A stretch of 32,000 bases of DNA from Pseudomonas aeruginosa (GTDB taxonomy: Bacteria; Pseudomonadota; Gammaproteobacteria; Pseudomonadales; Pseudomonadaceae): assembly GCF_001457615.1 (NCBI RefSeq), contig NZ_LN831024.1:5400001-5432000 (forward strand). The letters run 5' to 3'. Made by a program: the position numbers and the translations under genes. A model generated the notes under the pieces. It was not told where the DNA came from, ran no database searches, and worked only from the letters and a program-made list of their open reading frames with translations. Numbering within the stretch: position 1 is the first letter of the stretch; each line of letters begins with the position of its first letter. Positions 3,116 to 29,919 of this stretch are shown one piece after another.

Positions 3116-4549
3116 ATGTCCCGTGCCGCCGTCCCCTCCGTCCGCCGGCGCCTGCTGGTCAACCTGCTGGTCGGCTTCGTGCTGTGCTGGCTGAGCGTGG
3201 CGGCGCTGACCTACCACCTCTCGCTGAAGCAGGTGAACCGCCTGTTCGACGACGACATGGTGGACTTCGGCGAAGCCGCCCTGCGCCTGCTCGACCTTGC
3301 CACCGAAGACCAGGCCGGCGAGGACGGCTCCATCACCGAGATCATCGAACGCAGCCGCGAAGCGATCCAGGGTCTGCCCCTGCTGCGCCGCGAAAGCGCC
3401 CTCGGCTACGCCCTGTGGCGCGACGGCCAGCCGCTGCTGTCGAGCCTCAACCTGCCGCCGGAGATCACGGCCCAGGGCCCCGGCTTCAGCACCGTGGAAG
3501 CCCAGGGCACCCACTGGCGGGTGCTCCAGCTGAATATCGACGGCTTCCAGATCTGGATCAGCGAAAACCTGATCTACCGCCAGCACACCATGAACCTGCT
3601 GCTGTTCTACTCGCTGTTCCCGCTGCTGCTGGCGCTGCCGTTGCTCGGCGGCCTGGTCTGGTTCGGCGTTGCCCGCGGCCTGGCGCCGCTACGCGAAGTG
3701 CAGGCCGAGGTCCAGCAGCGCTCCGCGCGACACCTGCAGCCGATCGCGGTGGAGGCGGTGCCGCTGGAGATCCGCGGCCTCATCGACGAACTCAACCTCC
3801 TGCTGGAGCGTCTGCGCACCGCCCTCGAGGCCGAACGCCGACTGACCAGCGACGCCGCCCATGAGATCCGCACGCCACTGGCCAGCCTGCGCACCCATGC
3901 CCAGGTCGCGCTGCGTTCGGAAGACCCCAAGGCCCACGCCCGCGGCCTGCTGCAAGTCAGTCGCAGCGTCGAGCGGATCAGCACCTTGATGGAGCAGATC
4001 CTGCTCCTCGCCCGCCTCGACGGCGACGCCCTGCTGGAGCAATTCCACCCGGTCAACCTCGCCACCCTGGCCGAAGACGTACTCTCCGAACTGGCGCGCC
4101 AGGCCATCGACAAGGACATCGAGCTGTCGTTGCACCAGGAGACCGTGCACGTGATGGGCATCGACCTGTGGCTGAAGGCGATGGTCGGCAACCTGGTGGG
4201 CAACGCCCTGCGCTACACACCGGCCGGGGGCCAGGTCGAGATCCGCGTCGAGAATCGCGCCCAGCACGCCGTGCTGCGGGTGCGCGACAACGGCCCCGGG
4301 GTCGCCCTGGAAGAGCAGCAGGCGATCTTCACCCGCTTCTACCGCAGCCCCGCCACCAGCAGCGGCGAGGGCAGCGGCCTGGGCCTGCCGATCGTCAAGC
4401 GCATCGTCGAACTGCACTTCGGCAGTATCGGCCTGGGCAAGGGACTGGAGGGCAAAGGTCTGGAAGTGCAGGTGTTCCTGCCGAAGACCCAGCCGGACGC
4501 GACGCGGCCGCCGGCCAGAGGTCCGGACAGCGGGCGGTCACATATCTGA
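3116..4549 (+). CDS. pmrB: Sensor histidine kinase PmrB
   Basis: 477 aa with two TM segments flanking a periplasmic loop. H-box SDAAHEIRTPL, N-box GNALRYT, G-boxes DNGPGV and GSGLGLPIV. Confidence 0.9.
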   Translation: MSRAAVPSVRRRLLVNLLVGFVLCWLSVAALTYHLSLKQVNRLFDDDMVDFGEAALRLLDLATEDQAGEDGSITEIIERSREAIQGLPLLRRESALGYALWRDGQPLLSSLNLPPEITAQGPGFSTVEAQGTHWRVLQLNIDGFQIWISENLIYRQHTMNLLLFYSLFPLLLALPLLGGLVWFGVARGLAPLREVQAEVQQRSARHLQPIAVEAVPLEIRGLIDELNLLLERLRTALEAERRLTSDAAHEIRTPLASLRTHAQVALRSEDPKAHARGLLQVSRSVERISTLMEQILLLARLDGDALLEQFHPVNLATLAEDVLSELARQAIDKDIELSLHQETVHVMGIDLWLKAMVGNLVGNALRYTPAGGQVEIRVENRAQHAVLRVRDNGPGVALEEQQAIFTRFYRSPATSSGEGSGLGLPIVKRIVELHFGSIGLGKGLEGKGLEVQVFLPKTQPDATRPPARGPDSGRSHI

Positions 4550-23982: not shown

Positions 23983-24705
23983 ATGACGCTGATCGCCGCC
24001 GCCCAGAGCTGCGCCCACCCCGCCGACCTGCCACGCAACCTCGACGACCACCTGCGCCTGATGCGTATCGCCCAGGCACGGGGCGTGCGCCTGCTGGTGT
24101 TTCCCGAACTGTCGCTCACCGGCTACGAACCCAGCGCTGCCGCCGCCCTCGCCCAGCCGGCGGACACGCCCCTGCTGCAACCGCTGCGCCAGCTCGCCGA
24201 GCAGGCACGGATGACCACGGTGGTCGGCCTGCCGCTGCGCTCGCCGAAGCATGCCAAGCCGCTGATCGCCGCCCTGATCCTCGGCGCCGACGGCAGCCTC
24301 GGCGTCTATGCCAAGCAGCACCTGCACGCGGGCGAGGAACGCCACTTCTCAGCCGGCGACGGCGGCCCCCTGCTGGAGATCGACGGCCTGCCGATGGCGT
24401 TGGCGGTCTGCGCCGACTTCAGCCAACCCAGCCACCCGGCCCACGCCGCCCGTGCCGGCGCTCGCCTCTACATCGCCAGCGCGCTGATCGGAGAAAACGG
24501 CTACCCGGCCGACTCGGCCCTACTGGCCGGTTATGCCCGCGAGCACGGAATGGGCGTGCTGCTGGCCAACCATGGCGGGCCGACGGGTGGCTGGAAGGCG
24601 GCGGGCAGGAGTGCGTTTTGGAATGAGCGGGGAGCGCTGGTCAGGGAGACGACGGGGACGGGTGAGACGCTGCTTCTGCTGGAACGGACCGAGATAGACG
24701 CTTGA
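23983..24705 (+). CDS. Carbon-nitrogen hydrolase (nitrilase superfamily)
   Basis: 240 aa from the ATG at 23983. Candidate Glu-Lys-Cys triad: FPELSLTGY, YAKQHL, LAVCADF. Confidence 0.8.
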   Translation: MTLIAAAQSCAHPADLPRNLDDHLRLMRIAQARGVRLLVFPELSLTGYEPSAAAALAQPADTPLLQPLRQLAEQARMTTVVGLPLRSPKHAKPLIAALILGADGSLGVYAKQHLHAGEERHFSAGDGGPLLEIDGLPMALAVCADFSQPSHPAHAARAGARLYIASALIGENGYPADSALLAGYAREHGMGVLLANHGGPTGGWKAAGRSAFWNERGALVRETTGTGETLLLLERTEIDA

Positions 24706-24745: not shown

Positions 24746-24772
24746 TGGCGGAAGGCAGTGGGAGTCGAACCC
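24746..24772 (-). other. attL: orphan 3'-terminal fragment of a tRNA-Sec-type gene
   Basis: The minus strand reads GGGTTCGACTCCCACTGCCTTCCGCCA, a T-loop followed by 17 nt (5+8+1+3), the 8/5 tRNA-Sec geometry. The last 9 nt, CTTCCGCCA, match E. coli selC as recalled. No D or anticodon arm follows, and GC drops sharply immediately to the right. Confidence 0.8.
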
Positions 24773-24934
24773 TATTTTTAGGGTGGCCTTATTTGGCCAA
24801 TGCTGGACAATTACTGATAAATCAATGGCTTGCGATCAGGAGAAGTCGCCTTCATTGGTTATTGTTGGTCAGTGGTTTCGACACTTTTTCGACAGTCCAT
24901 GCCGTGGCATTTGTCTTGAGAACCCCATCAAAAG

Positions 24935-25618
24935 CTATTTAATTATTTTCTCTGGAGATATAACATCTCGATAGACCTTGTGAAGAGTTCTAAGATACTC
25001 CTTTCCAATCCCCGTTAATTCATACTTTACTTTTATATGAAATGATCCCCCAACCCCATTTGGTGACTTATCTCTCTCCGCCGATATATTCCTTTTAAGA
25101 ACCCTATGATTTGTCAGTACGTCGCCAAGACTGTCAATAAAGAGATTTTCGTTCTCATAACCATGCATAAATGTATGAATATCAATCAGTGAAACATTAT
25201 TGGTTATTCGAGCTTGGTGCTCAAAAACCTCAACACTTACTTCTCCATTTATTACTCTGGCGAAAGCGCCACCTAGAATGCTAGCTTTCTGCTCTGAGTC
25301 TGCTCTTGATAGGTTTTCGATAGCCTCCTCTGTAAACCGCTCTTTTTCTTTAGGTTCTAGTTTTGCGTAAAACCTACCTACTAGTTCCGGCGTAACCTCT
25401 TTCCTAGCTTCTTCCAAAAAAGAGCTTACTTTTTTTGCAAAACGCTTTTCTCTTGCACTACTAATAGCCTTAACAACACCAAGAATTGTTGATACCGCAG
25501 GTATCGACTTTAAAGTTTCGTCACTAATGAAAGCATCCAGTATAATTTCTGAGTATTCACTAACAGGAAGCTCGCCAATTTTTTCTATCAGATTATTGTC
25601 TGCATCCTTCTTACTCAT
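24935..25618 (-). CDS. Orphan prophage cargo protein, 227 aa
   Basis: The ATG at 25618 follows GAGGAG by 6 nt. GC is about 36%. The protein is Lys/Glu-rich and apparently soluble. No recognisable motif. The ORF-track start at 25660 is rejected. Confidence 0.6.
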   Translation of the reverse strand: MSKKDADNNLIEKIGELPVSEYSEIILDAFISDETLKSIPAVSTILGVVKAISSAREKRFAKKVSSFLEEARKEVTPELVGRFYAKLEPKEKERFTEEAIENLSRADSEQKASILGGAFARVINGEVSVEVFEHQARITNNVSLIDIHTFMHGYENENLFIDSLGDVLTNHRVLKRNISAERDKSPNGVGGSFHIKVKYELTGIGKEYLRTLHKVYRDVISPEKIIK

Positions 25619-25649
25619 AACTATCTCCTCAAATTTTGTGCAAGCTAAA

Positions 25650-25952
25650 TTACTTACCACAAAAATCCTTTAGTCCCTTTGTACTTATCGAGTTCGGATT
25701 AACTCTATGCCTTTCAATCCAGAATTGGCACTCCTCGCTATATAGGCGCTCTTGTCGCCTCGTCACTTCCTGCCTGTCGTCCTTTTCACAGTCTCTTCTT
25801 ATAGAGTTCCCAACCCCGTTCTCTCCGCTGCTATTTCTGAATGCGTAGCATAGAGCGGAGTTTGAAAACTTGATTAGCCAGTCATCACTGGCTTCATTTG
25901 CAAAAGCTGAGAAAGAAAGTAGAGCTAGAAATAATAAAAAGCATCCTTTCAT
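25650..25952 (-). CDS. Orphan secreted small protein, 100 aa
   Basis: The ATG at 25952 follows AGGAAAAG. Signal peptide MKGCFLLFLALLSFSAFA|NE, with four Cys in the mature part. Low GC. Confidence 0.6.
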   Translation of the reverse strand: MKGCFLLFLALLSFSAFANEASDDWLIKFSNSALCYAFRNSSGENGVGNSIRRDCEKDDRQEVTRRQERLYSEECQFWIERHRVNPNSISTKGLKDFCGK

Positions 25953-26007
25953 TTATCTTTTCCTGTCTTTCGGGCATACCAACGCCTAGCCACTTCCTGT
26001 GTGATCG

Positions 26008-26292
26008 CTATCCCGCGCTTTGACTGGTCAAGTTTCGATTGGCTTCATCGTAGCTCGGACTTGTCTGTCCGCACTCGGGGGCAATCTGTCCGCTAGCGAT
26101 CCAAAGGGCGTACTGAGGGAAGGCCCGCACAAGTACGTCAATTTCGTCAGTGCTTACTCGTACAGCGCCTTTGCTGACATTCAGCCACCGGCTGTGATCC
26201 GTATTGCTCAGTTGACTGAGCTTTTTAGGGCCGATCTGCTTAATCAATAGCCTTGCTCTATCTGCTGAGCTTTCCATATAGAAATTATTCAC
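26008..26292 (-). CDS. Pf prophage repressor (Pf4r/C-repressor-like)
   Basis: 89-94 aa (ATG at 26277 or GTG at 26292). It is divergent from the excisionase gene, and LSQLSNTDHSRWLNVSKGAVRVS looks like an HTH. The position is identical to pf4r in Pf4. Confidence 0.7.
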   Translation of the reverse strand: MNNFYMESSADRARLLIKQIGPKKLSQLSNTDHSRWLNVSKGAVRVSTDEIDVLVRAFPQYALWIASGQIAPECGQTSPSYDEANRNLTSQSAG

Positions 26293-26410
26293 ACGAAGCA
26301 GCGAGGGTAACTATTGACTCGACCAAAGGCCAGGTCAATAATTGCCTTCAGGGTAATTATTGACTTAATGGGCATAGCCCAACAAAGACCAACATAGTGC
26401 AGCAAAGGCC
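26293..26410. promoter_or_regulatory. Repressor/excisionase switch region with repeated TTATTGAC half-sites
   Basis: GGGTAAcTATTGACT at 26305-26319 and GGGTAAtTATTGACT at 26351-26365 are direct repeats. The inverted copy GTCAATAATT at 26334-26343 is the exact reverse complement of 26355-26364. TTGACT-N17-AATAAT at 26314-26342 resembles a sigma70 promoter. Confidence 0.55.
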
Positions 26411-26626
26411 ATGGAAGTGGAAGAAATCAAGGCTCAAGACCTTCGCGCGGCGCCCCCGGTGTTGCCGTGGCGGGACTTCGCGAACTGGATTGGCATGGGG
26501 GAAGACCACGAAACCGTCCGTGGATGGATTCGTAAGGGCTATCTCCCCGCGCACAAGATCGGCAAGCACGTGATGGTCAATGTTGCGCTCTTCACCCATC
26601 AACTGATGGAAAAGGAGGAGTTCTGA
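26411..26626 (+). CDS. xisF: Excisionase / DNA-binding switch protein (XisF-like)
   Basis: 71 aa. MerR/excisionase-type HTH (RDFANWIGMGEDHETVRGWIRKGYLPAHKIGKHVMV). It is divergent from the repressor. Confidence 0.75.
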   Translation: MEVEEIKAQDLRAAPPVLPWRDFANWIGMGEDHETVRGWIRKGYLPAHKIGKHVMVNVALFTHQLMEKEEF

Positions 26627-27081: not shown

Positions 27082-27414
27082 ATGCTCGCTGACACCCTGA
27101 AAGCGCTGCTCCTGCTCTGCCTGATCCAGGCCGCCCGCACCGTGGCCGATCCGGTCAAGGGCCGCGCTCCCGGCTCGTCGGAACAGCCTCACCGTTCCGG
27201 CGAACGGAAGCACGGGCGGAGCGCACCCTTGAACGTCTCCCCCCTGAAACAGCCTCCGCTGGGGAGTGTGGGGCAGCTTCTCCGCCCCGCGCTCCCGAGC
27301 CCTCGGCGGCAAGAGCGGGATGACAAGGGCAGAGCCCTTGGTGTTAACGGACTTGAAAGTTATTCATTTCGGCGAAAATCGAAATGCTCGTTACTGCACT
27401 TTGTTGCTCAATAA
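27082..27414 (+). CDS. Possible Pf early protein (PA0719-position ORF)
   Basis: Starts 3 nt after the previous stop. The first 30 or so codons are host-like ([18 protein letters not shown]...). The 3' third runs into AT-rich non-coding-looking DNA, so the end is doubtful. Confidence 0.4.
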
Positions 27415-27616
27415 GTTCAGTAGCTTGATATTTCCTCAGAAACGATTTTAGGCGCTTTATCTGTGTTGATATAGCTCCACTAGAACTCACTGAAACTCGG
27501 TAAAAAAGGCTCTTCTTTTCCTAAGCAATCACTTCCGCTGAATCACCGGCACATGAGCCGAATTGCAGCAGCGGGCTAACTCACGCCGAAAAAGGCGAAT
27601 TGAAGGAGAAACACCG
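27415..27616 (+). promoter_or_regulatory. AT-rich non-coding leader upstream of the structural operon
   Basis: About 200 nt with no ORF and roughly 42% GC. It ends in GAAGGAG, 8 nt before the ssDNA-binding gene ATG. Confidence 0.4.
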
Positions 27617-28051
27617 ATGAACATGTTTGCAACCCAAGGCGGCGTCGTCGAACTGTGGGTCACCAAGACCGACACCTATACCTCGACCAAGACCGGGGAA
27701 ATCTACGCCTCGGTCCAGTCCATCGCCCCGATCCCGGAAGGTGCCCGTGGCAACGCCAAGGGCTTCGAGATCAGCGAATACAACATCGAGCCGACCCTGC
27801 TGGACGCCATCGTCTTCGAAGGCCAGCCGGTGCTCTGCAAGTTCGCCAGCGTGGTCCGCCCGACCCAAGACCGTTTCGGCCGGATCACCAATACCCAGGT
27901 CCTCGTGGATCTGCTGGCCGTGGGCGGCAAGCCGATGGCGCCGACCGCCCAAGCCCCGGCCCGCCCGCAAGCACAGGCCCAAGCCCCGCGCCCGGCCCAG
28001 CAGCCGCAGGGCCAGGACAAACAAGACAAGTCCCCGGACGCCAAGGCGTAA
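27617..28051 (+). CDS. Pf ssDNA-binding protein (gene 5 protein type)
   Basis: 144 aa from the ATG at 27617. MNMFATQGGVVELWV...VLVDLLAVGG plus a Pro/Gln/Ala-rich tail matches the Pf1/Pf4 (PA0720) ssDNA-binding protein as I recall it. Confidence 0.9.
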   Translation: MNMFATQGGVVELWVTKTDTYTSTKTGEIYASVQSIAPIPEGARGNAKGFEISEYNIEPTLLDAIVFEGQPVLCKFASVVRPTQDRFGRITNTQVLVDLLAVGGKPMAPTAQAPARPQAQAQAPRPAQQPQGQDKQDKSPDAKA

Positions 28052-28656: not shown

Positions 28657-28734
28657 GTGATCTGGTCCCTGATGCTGGGCGCATTCATGGCGTCCGCGCT
28701 GCTGACGGGATTGAAAATCGGCCAGTATCAGTGA
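28657..28734 (+). CDS. Possible 25-aa hydrophobic minor virion/assembly peptide
   Basis: The GTG at 28657 (or the ATG at 28672) gives (M)IWSLMLGAFMASALLTGLKIGQYQ. It lies between coaB and the terminator. No clear SD. Confidence 0.3.
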   Translation: MIWSLMLGAFMASALLTGLKIGQYQ

Positions 28735-28741
28735 CAGGAGG

Positions 28742-28764
28742 AGGGGCCGAAAGGCCCCTTTTTT
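28742..28764 (+). terminator. Rho-independent terminator/attenuator after the coat gene block
   Basis: AGGGGCC-gaaa-GGCCCCT followed by T6, ending directly before the coaA ATG. Confidence 0.8.
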
Positions 28765-29919
28765 ATGCCTCGGTTCATATTGTTGATTATCACGTTGTTA
28801 TTTGGTTCGGCAGCTCATGCCGAATATTATTACTGGTACATGGGTTATTTTAATAAGAAAGTTTCATCCCCTTCGGCTGGCTGTGATCTTTATTTCAGCA
28901 GTTTTTCCAAGGACCCTGGTCGGGTTTTTGTTATGGAACCTTCGTCAAATCCAAGTGAGGCGGGCAAGGTTTTCTATTGTGTGGTTCGTTCTGGTGATTG
29001 GATTCTTTTTAATACGGATGTTTATTTGAAAGGTGATAGGTGTCCTGAGGGAACTGAGCTTGATCTCAGTGCCGGCGAATGCCGGGAGAATAAGTGCAAG
29101 ATTCTGGCTGGCTCGCTCTATGAAAAAGGCGGCCACCAAGCACCGATTTCCCGCTTCATCAATTACCTCGGTTGTGAGATCGCCGTCAGTTCGATTGATG
29201 GTTGTATCGGCCCCGCTGAGGGCGAAGCGGGTGGAACCTTCTGCCGGGTCATCGGCTCGTTCACCGGTAACTGGTTCACCTCCAAGGGCTCCTGTGCTTT
29301 CGGCTGCGACGTGGGCCCGGGCGACGGTCCGCCTCCGGGTGGGGACGGCGGCACCGGGGGCGACGGTGGTAGCAACCCGCCCGGCGGCGACGGTGGAAGC
29401 GATGGCGGCACCAAGCCCGGTAACGGCGGTGGCGATGACGGCTCCAGTGGTGGCGGCGGCGGTGGGGGCGGTGGCGGTAACAACCCCTGTCAGGGCCATG
29501 TTGGCAGTGACTGCGGCACCACGCCCGGCGGTGACGGCAGTAGCGGCGGCGATGGCGACGGGTCCGGCTCCAGCGGCGGGACCGGTGGCGATGGCGGCGA
29601 CGGCTCCGGCGGGGGAGGCCTGAAAGAGCCGAAGCAAGGCTCCTTCGACAAGACCATCAAGGAATACGACGACGCCATCGCCAAGGCGCAAAAGGACTTC
29701 CAGGAACTGCAAGGCAAGTTCGAAAGCGTCCTCGCTTCCAAGTTCGATATTCACCTGGGCACCGGCGGCGGCTCCCTACCGTGTTGGGACTTTACCGCCC
29801 TCGGCCAGCGCTACGACGTCTGCCTCACCCAGTACGCCCAAGAACTCTCCGTCATCCGCTACGTGGTGCTGTTCATCGCCGCGATCCTGGCCGGATGGAT
29901 CGTTTTCTATCGCTCCTGA
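28765..29919 (+). CDS. coaA: Minor coat/adsorption protein CoaA (g3p analogue)
   Basis: 384 aa: signal peptide MPRFILLIITLLFGSAAHA, a Cys-containing N-terminal domain, a long Gly/Asp/Ser/Pro linker, and a C-terminal TM anchor VVLFIAAILAGWIVFY. Confidence 0.85.
   Translation: MPRFILLIITLLFGSAAHAEYYYWYMGYFNKKVSSPSAGCDLYFSSFSKDPGRVFVMEPSSNPSEAGKVFYCVVRSGDWILFNTDVYLKGDRCPEGTELDLSAGECRENKCKILAGSLYEKGGHQAPISRFINYLGCEIAVSSIDGCIGPAEGEAGGTFCRVIGSFTGNWFTSKGSCAFGCDVGPGDGPPPGGDGGTGGDGGSNPPGGDGGSDGGTKPGNGGGDDGSSGGGGGGGGGGNNPCQGHVGSDCGTTPGGDGSSGGDGDGSGSSGGTGGDGGDGSGGGGLKEPKQGSFDKTIKEYDDAIAKAQKDFQELQGKFESVLASKFDIHLGTGGGSLPCWDFTALGQRYDVCLTQYAQELSVIRYVVLFIAAILAGWIVFYRS

Follow-up and report, generated by a model that had tools for sequence, protein, structure and literature searches.

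A low-GC cargo cassette next to the repressor gene of a Pf-tRNA-Sec prophage of Pseudomonas aeruginosa: a candidate defence protein from a widespread unnamed family and a small, predicted secreted cysteine protein

Pf prophages shape Pseudomonas aeruginosa virulence, biofilm formation and the outcome of phage therapy, and their accessory slots deliver defence systems. Here, we analyze the cargo of one such slot in a stretch of 32,000 nucleotides from P. aeruginosa (assembly GCF_001457615.1, contig NZ_LN831024.1, positions 5,400,001 to 5,432,000 of the forward strand), referred to as the window and numbered from its first letter. The window contains a Pf-tRNA-Sec filamentous prophage, and between its attachment (att) core and its repressor gene orf89/pf4r there is a low-GC cassette formed by two minus-strand open reading frames (ORFs), ORF100 and ORF227, named after the lengths of their products. 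The cassette, its genes and its att side comprise the following features:

24897-25958, minus strand: exchangeable low-GC cargo cassette, about 1.06 kb, with ORF100 and ORF227, delimited by GC content and homology breakpoints
25650-25952, minus strand: ORF100, 100-aa precursor of a small, predicted secreted four-cysteine protein; signal peptide at residues 1-18 (25952-25899)
24935-25618, minus strand: ORF227, predicted cytoplasmic protein of 227 aa from a large unnamed family, a candidate defence gene according to its family, model and contexts
25625-25630, minus strand: GAGGAG, the ribosome-binding site of ORF227, separated from its ATG by 6 nt
24773-24896, minus strand: conserved Pf backbone segment from att to the cargo, the left cassette junction, 86-92% identical to PfAC13 and WX-TY
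24746-24772, minus strand: attL core, the 27-bp Pf-tRNA-Sec attP/attB and 3' end of tRNA-Sec; its sequence, GGGTTCGACTCCCACTGCCTTCCGCCA, equals attP in PMC7549136

The GC content falls from 0.72 at 24350-24649 to 0.40 at 24800-25099 and reaches its lowest value, 0.35, at 25400-25699; overall, it is 0.35-0.45 in the cassette vs. 0.65-0.72 in the host, and host-like values of at least 0.59 are found again only past ~26450. In order to set the edges of the cassette, we compared the window with Pf phages bearing other cargo. On the repressor side, the backbone homology to these phages stops at 25959-25970, reaching 25946, the cargo ATG included, in PfAC08, whereas on the att side it picks up at 24893-24896 in PfAC13 and WX-TY, whose cargo is different. 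Thus, the exchangeable unit spans approximately 24897-25958 (1.06 kb). It is rare in P. aeruginosa genomes, with tens of sequence variants on ~150-200 contigs. No Rfam match was found in the window or the cassette, and the window holds no complete tRNA.

These data fully confirm the anatomy given in the first-pass annotation of this DNA, that is, the GC fall, the coordinates of both ORFs, the GAGGAG site, the gaps of 55 nt between the repressor gene and ORF100 and of 31 nt between the two ORFs, the signal peptide and the four mature cysteines. The placement of the genes in an attL-proximal cargo slot co-oriented with the repressor also holds, as the exact 27-bp attP core of Pf-tRNA-Sec published earlier (Fiedoruk 2020, PMC7549136) lies on one side and a repressor of the phrog_147 family on the other. 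The slot had been called a cargo hotspot, and the same conserved flanks indeed enclose variable, unrelated cargo in other Pf phages, always in the same orientation: a 503-aa AbiEii-like protein in PfAC13, a ParA-like ATPase with a 202-aa protein in WX-TY, a 230-aa membrane protein, a 165-aa protein and IetAS in PfAC08, and a 109-aa signal-peptide protein with a nuclease-related gene in phage 99-2. This agrees with previous descriptions of the Pf accessory region as variable, with about half of its ORFs lacking known function and defence systems often present (PMC7549136; PMC11878078); Retron, Gabija, Kiwa, ShosTA, Avs, IetAS and toxin-antitoxin (TA) modules have been found there (PMC11878078; PMC7549136). 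The hotspot character of the slot is therefore already known, and the two genes are new and uncharacterised.

ORF227 carries the NCBI annotation "hypothetical protein", and it shared with ORF100 the label of orphan in the first-pass annotation; for ORF227 this label does not stand, since profile searches place it in a family widespread across many taxa. While a word-indexed search returned only relatives with at least 86% identity, HMMER run exhaustively over 1.84 billion cluster representatives yielded 832 relatives at E<=1e-3, 29 at E<=1e-10, each standing for a cluster at 50% identity. Nearly all of them are ~200-260 aa long, most are aligned across most of their length, and positions E24, D28, P40, K63, F67, K111, and G205 are near-invariant in the family. 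Among 72 relatives, no Pfam, NCBIfam or PADLOC family recurs, and each PADLOC model is matched, weakly, by at most two of the 72; a tblastn search of 50,697 phage records gave no match to ORF227, and sequence profiles of the Protein Data Bank (PDB) yielded nothing significant either for the whole protein or for its C-terminal part.

An AlphaFold2 (AF2) model of ORF227, built with the family alignment, has a mean predicted local distance difference test score (pLDDT) of 83 and a predicted template modelling score (pTM) of 0.77. In this model, residues 1-28 are disordered and residues 55-169 form a helical body, with a C-terminal unit at 144-215 that comprises helices 144-153 and 157-169, strands 174-183 and 192-201, and helix 203-215. 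The family profile aligns weakly (E = 0.3-1.3) to YybR, an HxlR-type protein, along the recognition helix, the wing and a "Y-x-LTE-x-G" motif, and the C-terminus may be winged-helix-like. The protein has no cysteine and no segment of transmembrane hydrophobicity.

The genomic contexts of the family are of particular relevance. All 16 Pseudomonas relatives (35-46% identity) form solitary low-GC islands (0.36-0.42) of ~0.7-0.8 kb in surroundings with GC content of 0.6-0.65. Ten relatives share one slot of P2-like Pseudomonas prophages, where they are antisense to the late genes and flanked by a gpV-like baseplate gene (phrog_9992) and by tail completion and terminator genes (phrog_26, phrog_65); an antisense insert among P2-like late genes is the classic moron configuration. 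In a metagenomic prophage (L033-35), a 27%-identical relative begins 8 nt after the gene of an HTH_3 CI-type repressor divergent from the early genes, and this repressor-adjacent position implies the same logic as in Pf. Other relatives are embedded in restriction-modification (R-M) loci: in a type I locus (L036), HsdS is followed by Abi_C and then by the ORF227-family gene, while in a lineage with 67-100% mutual identity and 30-38% identity to the L036 relative (L079-L099), the gene lies between HsdM/RhuM and HsdS/HsdR. In L092, the family gene and the end of an MmeI-type R-M gene overlap and are fused; in L105, the relative follows a large DNA methyltransferase gene, and in L016 it adjoins a reverse transcriptase gene. 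Among 145 neighbouring proteins from 58 metagenome loci, the top Pfam domains are Methylase_S (10), N6_Mtase (8), and HsdM_N (6), followed by UvrD-like and AAA_19 helicases (5), RhuM (4), and DUF2971 (3). The family thus co-localises recurrently with R-M genes, abortive infection (Abi) genes and moron slots, as counted in raw occurrences, and such a pattern is of the type used for nominating defence genes. Because the habitats of the family are prophage moron slots, repressor-adjacent positions and the interior of R-M operons, we propose ORF227 as a defence protein; of the candidate roles listed at first pass, anti-phage defence gains contextual support for ORF227.

At the N-terminus of ORF100, MKGCFLLFLALLSFSAFA followed by NE, the n/h/c organisation and A-x-A site typical of Sec signal peptides can be recognised, and by heuristic rules the protein would be exported via Sec (MK, then GCFLLFLALLSF, then SAFA before NE, and no lipobox); the Kyte-Doolittle maximum for a 19-residue window is 1.63, at residues 3-21, and variants of the protein retain A-x-A in the form SASA. 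A lipoprotein was considered and rejected, Cys4 being outside a lipobox context. The mature protein would have 82 residues, including 14 acidic and 14 basic ones and four cysteines (Cys35, 55, 75, and 98); all four mature cysteines and the motif YS-x-ECQFWIERHRVNP are invariant among the alleles. The ratio of non-synonymous to synonymous substitution rates (dN/dS) of ORF100 vs. diverged alleles is 0.11-0.16 (0.15 at dS 0.14; 0.11 at dS 0.97), and that of ORF227 is 0.25-0.26 at dS 0.26. These values show purifying selection, and hence both ORFs are real genes.

In 5.8 billion protein clusters, the only relatives of ORF100 are one cluster with 97% identity and a variant of 112 aa with 80% identity, both located in P. 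aeruginosa Pf prophages. The 50,697 phage records (tblastn) and an IMG/VR scan contain no ORF100 match, profile comparison with PDB sequences gave nothing significant, and Pfam, PADLOC, and NCBIfam returned no match, PHROGs giving only a weak one (phrog_18252, E = 0.0013). By all these searches, ORF100 is a true orphan confined to Pf prophages of P. aeruginosa, and for this gene the earlier label stands. Despite strong purifying selection, it is absent from almost all NCBI annotations of the P. aeruginosa genomes that carry it: only gene calls by the Joint Genome Institute (JGI) and Logan contribute cluster members, and none of the eight related Pf loci (L001-L008) lists it in its gene table. 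In one of these loci (L006:1878-2180), the allele has a premature stop (W78 to stop), and the adjoining ORF227 is intact and identical to the copy in L001. The role of ORF100 is essentially guessed from its predicted localisation. As for its slot, the first cargo ORF of phage 99-2 (L120:4146-4472) encodes a highly charged protein of 109 aa with a signal peptide (MKRMLLALALSPAFA before EE) and two C-terminal cysteines, whose sequence bears no relation to that of ORF100; it may be a recurring pattern that the first cargo position codes for a small exported protein.

The repressor side of the cassette includes four further features:

25953-26007, minus strand: 55-nt spacer with an AGGA Shine-Dalgarno sequence, the probable cargo docking junction, recognised by conservation
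26008-26292, minus strand: Pf repressor of the Pf4r/orf89 type (phrog_147, E = 4e-24)
26310-26338, minus strand: promoter-like -35/-10 site upstream of the repressor, TTGACC-17-AATAGT, 9/12 matches, by consensus match only
26411-26626, plus strand: XisF-type excisionase, 71 aa, divergent from the repressor (phrog_1864, E = 9e-39; HTH_17)

The repressor ORF is 94 aa long, and its likely start is ATG 26277, which gives 89 aa, the form in which homologues are called. Its stop ends at 26008, 55 nt before the ATG of ORF100. On the minus strand, the DNA from the repressor to either ORF contains no predicted terminator-like or promoter-like site, and the RNA folding of the spacer is no better than that of its shuffles (z = 0.2), in line with the spacer free of hairpins and T-runs described in the first-pass annotation. 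The sequence would permit co-transcription of ORF100 and ORF227 with the repressor, for which another prophage offers an analogue; the promoter-like site at 26310-26338 would be the putative start of the common transcript.

The spacer itself is 100% identical across four cassette lineages, as are the last ~30 nt of the repressor gene and the first ~130 nt of ORF100, whereas the repressors of these lineages are only 42-70% identical. In Pf phages with other cargo, the spacer is conserved at 72-91%. The first cargo gene of PfAC08 begins 54 nt past the repressor stop (spacer at L121:5094-5147), and phage 99-2 has two copies of the spacer (L120:3501-3612 and 4081-4162), the second of which directly precedes the small signal-peptide ORF. 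This conserved junction probably has two roles, coupling the cargo to transcription of the repressor gene and providing an anchor for recombination when cargo is exchanged.

Several other observations concern the same region and the prophage as a whole. An imperfect direct repeat of 17 nt (88%) occurs in the spacer (25983-25999, CAGGAAGTGGCTAGGCG on the minus strand) and again at positions 25756-25772 inside ORF100, possibly by chance. The repressor-excisionase intergenic region (26310-26364) contains an operator-like palindrome, GTCAATAATTACC-N5-GGCAATTATTGAC, with 13-nt arms that are 92% complementary, and a third half-site, GTCAATAGTTACC, ~20 nt from it, which overlaps the promoter-like site of the repressor. 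In the Pf core, the GC content dips to ~0.45 at 27350-27650, upstream of the gene of a single-stranded DNA-binding protein, and at 28700-29150, at the start of a Gly-rich g3p-like minor coat gene (28765-29919). In one strain (L006:3171-6834), a second island lies directly against the cassette-bearing Pf-tRNA-Sec prophage at the att that both use, and its genes code for a DUF6538 integrase-like protein, a HEPN protein and a nuclease of the GmrSD type. The tRNA-Sec site is thereby occupied in tandem by defence-bearing elements. Three separate chromosomal sites were considered for the cassette and rejected in favour of two att types, as the L006 prophage uses the tRNA-Sec att and differs only by the neighbouring island.

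Taking all this into account, we favour, with middling confidence, the reading that the cassette holds two independent morons expressed in the lysogen: ORF227 is a candidate for defence by a single gene, and ORF100 would be a periplasmic factor; we infer both functions, as well as the transcription pattern and the winged-helix assignment. According to this reading, the cassette would have been acquired horizontally into the variable cargo slot between the attL core and the repressor gene, and in the lysogen, transcription from the repressor promoter would most likely read through the 55-nt spacer with its ribosome-binding site into both genes. As a soluble protein of the cytoplasm, ORF227 would provide defence or exclusion on its own; its winged-helix-like C-terminal domain may sense or bind nucleic acid, and its helical N-terminal part may be an effector or oligomerisation module. 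ORF100 would be exported by Sec, acquire up to two disulfides and act in the periplasm, where it most plausibly would exclude incoming phage at the envelope, at pilus- or Tol-dependent entry or at a cell-wall step.

A number of points weigh against this reading. ORF227 has no match in Pfam, PADLOC v2, NCBIfam or PHROGs; Foldseek found no match to its model in the PDB and a single uncharacterised viral protein in BFVD, and no PADLOC-DB v2.0.0 model is matched by either protein at E<=1. In this the first-pass annotation is borne out: neither protein matches a named family in Pfam, PADLOC, NCBIfam, PHROGs or the PDB, and the Foldseek and PADLOC comparisons proposed at that time connect ORF227 to no characterised family, nor does PADLOC connect ORF100 to one. 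The winged-helix assignment is weak, consisting of a non-significant alignment and the order of secondary-structure elements. The AF2 model of ORF100 is poor and helical (pLDDT 63) and is uninformative on function, making its Foldseek result meaningless. The context argument is guilt by association with a limited number of independent events: the R-M-embedded occurrences reduce to a few independent lineages, and the loci from IMG/VR have a built-in bias towards prophages. In P. aeruginosa, MvaT and MvaU typically bind AT-rich DNA of foreign origin. These silencers bind the equivalent region of Pf4 (PMC7379572), and by analogy expression of the cassette in the lysogen may be low or conditional. 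Finally, in each of the nine Pf loci with ORF227, ORF100 is its neighbour, which leaves room for cooperation.

This last point leads to the main structural alternative, an obligate two-component system acquired jointly, e.g., a periplasmic sensor or decoy (ORF100) with a cytoplasmic effector (ORF227). The window and the eight related Pf loci that were fetched all have the two genes side by side in one orientation, with 31 nt between them, and these loci cover two types each of repressor (100% and 42% identity) and att; the sequence between the ORF100 stop and the ORF227 ATG is conserved in L001 and L007, and both ORFs are intact in the window and in seven out of eight loci. However, these loci share ~1.2 kb of near-identical DNA (91-98%), which accounts for the linkage without functional coupling, so that the linkage within Pf may be simple co-inheritance. 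The predicted compartments differ, the periplasm for ORF100 and the cytoplasm for ORF227, and neither protein has a membrane-spanning segment as a link. Outside Pf, no relative of ORF227 has an ORF100-like neighbour, either in the 16 Pseudomonas loci, in all of which ORF227 stands alone, or in any of the metagenome contexts. Conversely, in L009-L014, an ORF100 homologue (P0005) is followed not by ORF227 but by an unrelated 235-aa membrane protein of phrog_7381, which in PfAC08 is present without ORF100, and the L006 nonsense allele of ORF100 lies beside an intact ORF227. Thus, the pairing described at first pass is no conserved functional unit, and the question whether the two genes travel together has a divided answer: they are linked within Pf (the window and eight loci) and separate outside that lineage. 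We regard the two-component system as rather unlikely, and the best reading of the sequence comparisons is that the cassette comprises two independently mobile genes that would not form one two-part system. The phrog_7381 proteins (L010:6336-7043; L121:5148-5840; 230-235 aa), which represent another repressor-proximal Pf cargo gene, have an N-terminal transmembrane helix and a C-terminal four-cysteine region, whose motif RECRK...(E/Q)CR(I/L)W..R resembles RDCEK...EECQFWIERH of ORF100. A shared periplasmic cysteine domain is possible, and homology of the two regions is not claimed (BLASTP E = 0.09; hhalign P = 0.005, probability 7%).

The other alternatives concern function. That ORF227 is an auxiliary winged-helix transcription regulator, engaged in lysogeny maintenance or host reprogramming rather than in defence, would fit the winged-helix-like C-terminal topology with the weak HxlR-type alignment, as well as the position of the gene directly downstream of repressors in two unrelated prophage types; but embedding in type I and MmeI R-M loci, an Abi_C neighbour and a P2-like late-gene slot are unexpected for a phage-specific regulator, the winged helix-turn-helix match is non-significant, and the best conserved residues (E24, D28, P40, K63, F67, K111) belong to the N-terminal half, outside the putative recognition helix, which makes this explanation improbable as well. 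Far less credible is an addiction or TA-like module that stabilises the prophage, similar to parDE and PfiTA of other Pf prophages. TA modules are the commonest cargo of Pf accessory regions (PMC7549136) and the layout of two small co-oriented genes is suggestive, yet neither protein resembles a TA family in Pfam, PADLOC or NCBIfam, the product of the upstream gene is predicted to be exported, which is atypical for a toxin or an antitoxin, each gene is found without the other, so that both the homology and the obligate pairing expected of a type II system are missing, and a nonsense allele of ORF100 is tolerated. Equally remote is the notion that the cassette is AT-rich DNA carried along passively, decaying or silent and at present functionless. 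The low GC content makes the cassette a likely MvaT/MvaU target, as judged from PMC7379572, one ORF100 allele is broken, and the cassette is rare; at the same time, both genes are clearly under purifying selection, the frames are intact across lineages at dS 0.26-0.97, and the ORF227 family is conserved in many taxa. Hence, two independent morons, one of them a candidate defence gene, is the reading that we retain.

The cassette adds two uncharacterised genes to the cargo repertoire of Pf prophages. One of them, ORF227, is tied to a large unnamed family in defence-gene habitats and is thus a concrete and cheap candidate for defence screening; the product of the other is small and predicted to be secreted, and NCBI annotation usually misses this gene. 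The conserved 55-nt spacer, as a probable docking junction, could be used for systematic discovery of cargo across Pf genomes.

Comparison with known systems shows both similarities and differences. ORF100 and ORF227 are homologous to none of the described Pf accessory cargo (PA0715/PA0716 in Pf4, AbiEii-like proteins, IetAS, KKP, and TA modules), while the position, orientation, flanks and the 54-55-nt spacer are alike. Exclusion and abortive-infection genes linked to a repressor are known from other phages: rexAB of lambda with cI, sieB of P22, and bstA of BTP1. Similarly, ORF100 and ORF227 are located directly downstream of the repressor gene and co-oriented with it, with no terminator between, but they are not known to resemble RexA/B, SieB or BstA in sequence or fold. 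In P2, the S/V slot holds a single-gene moron, orf30, and old, tin, and fun mark the defence hotspots; the ten ORF227 relatives in P2-like prophages are likewise AT-rich single-gene inserts, antisense and situated between gpV-like and tail completion genes, whereas the window copy resides in an inovirus and not in a myovirus. The placement of the R-M-embedded relatives resembles that of known candidates of this kind (PDC and HEC of PADLOC; Abi_C, RhuM, and PrrC-type genes in hsd operons), though no PADLOC v2 candidate model is matched recurrently in the family. Superinfection exclusion in filamentous phages is mediated by PfsE (PA0721), a core inner-membrane peptide of 30 aa, and by g3p. To judge from L002 and L005, in which genes of 30 aa are called, the window prophage seems to have kept a core ORF the size of PfsE. 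ORF100 differs from PfsE in being accessory and, by prediction, a Sec-exported 82-aa disulfide protein, and it is similar to neither PfsE nor g3p; it would likewise be a small phage-encoded envelope protein, and as a hypothesis it might block pilus- or Tol-dependent entry.

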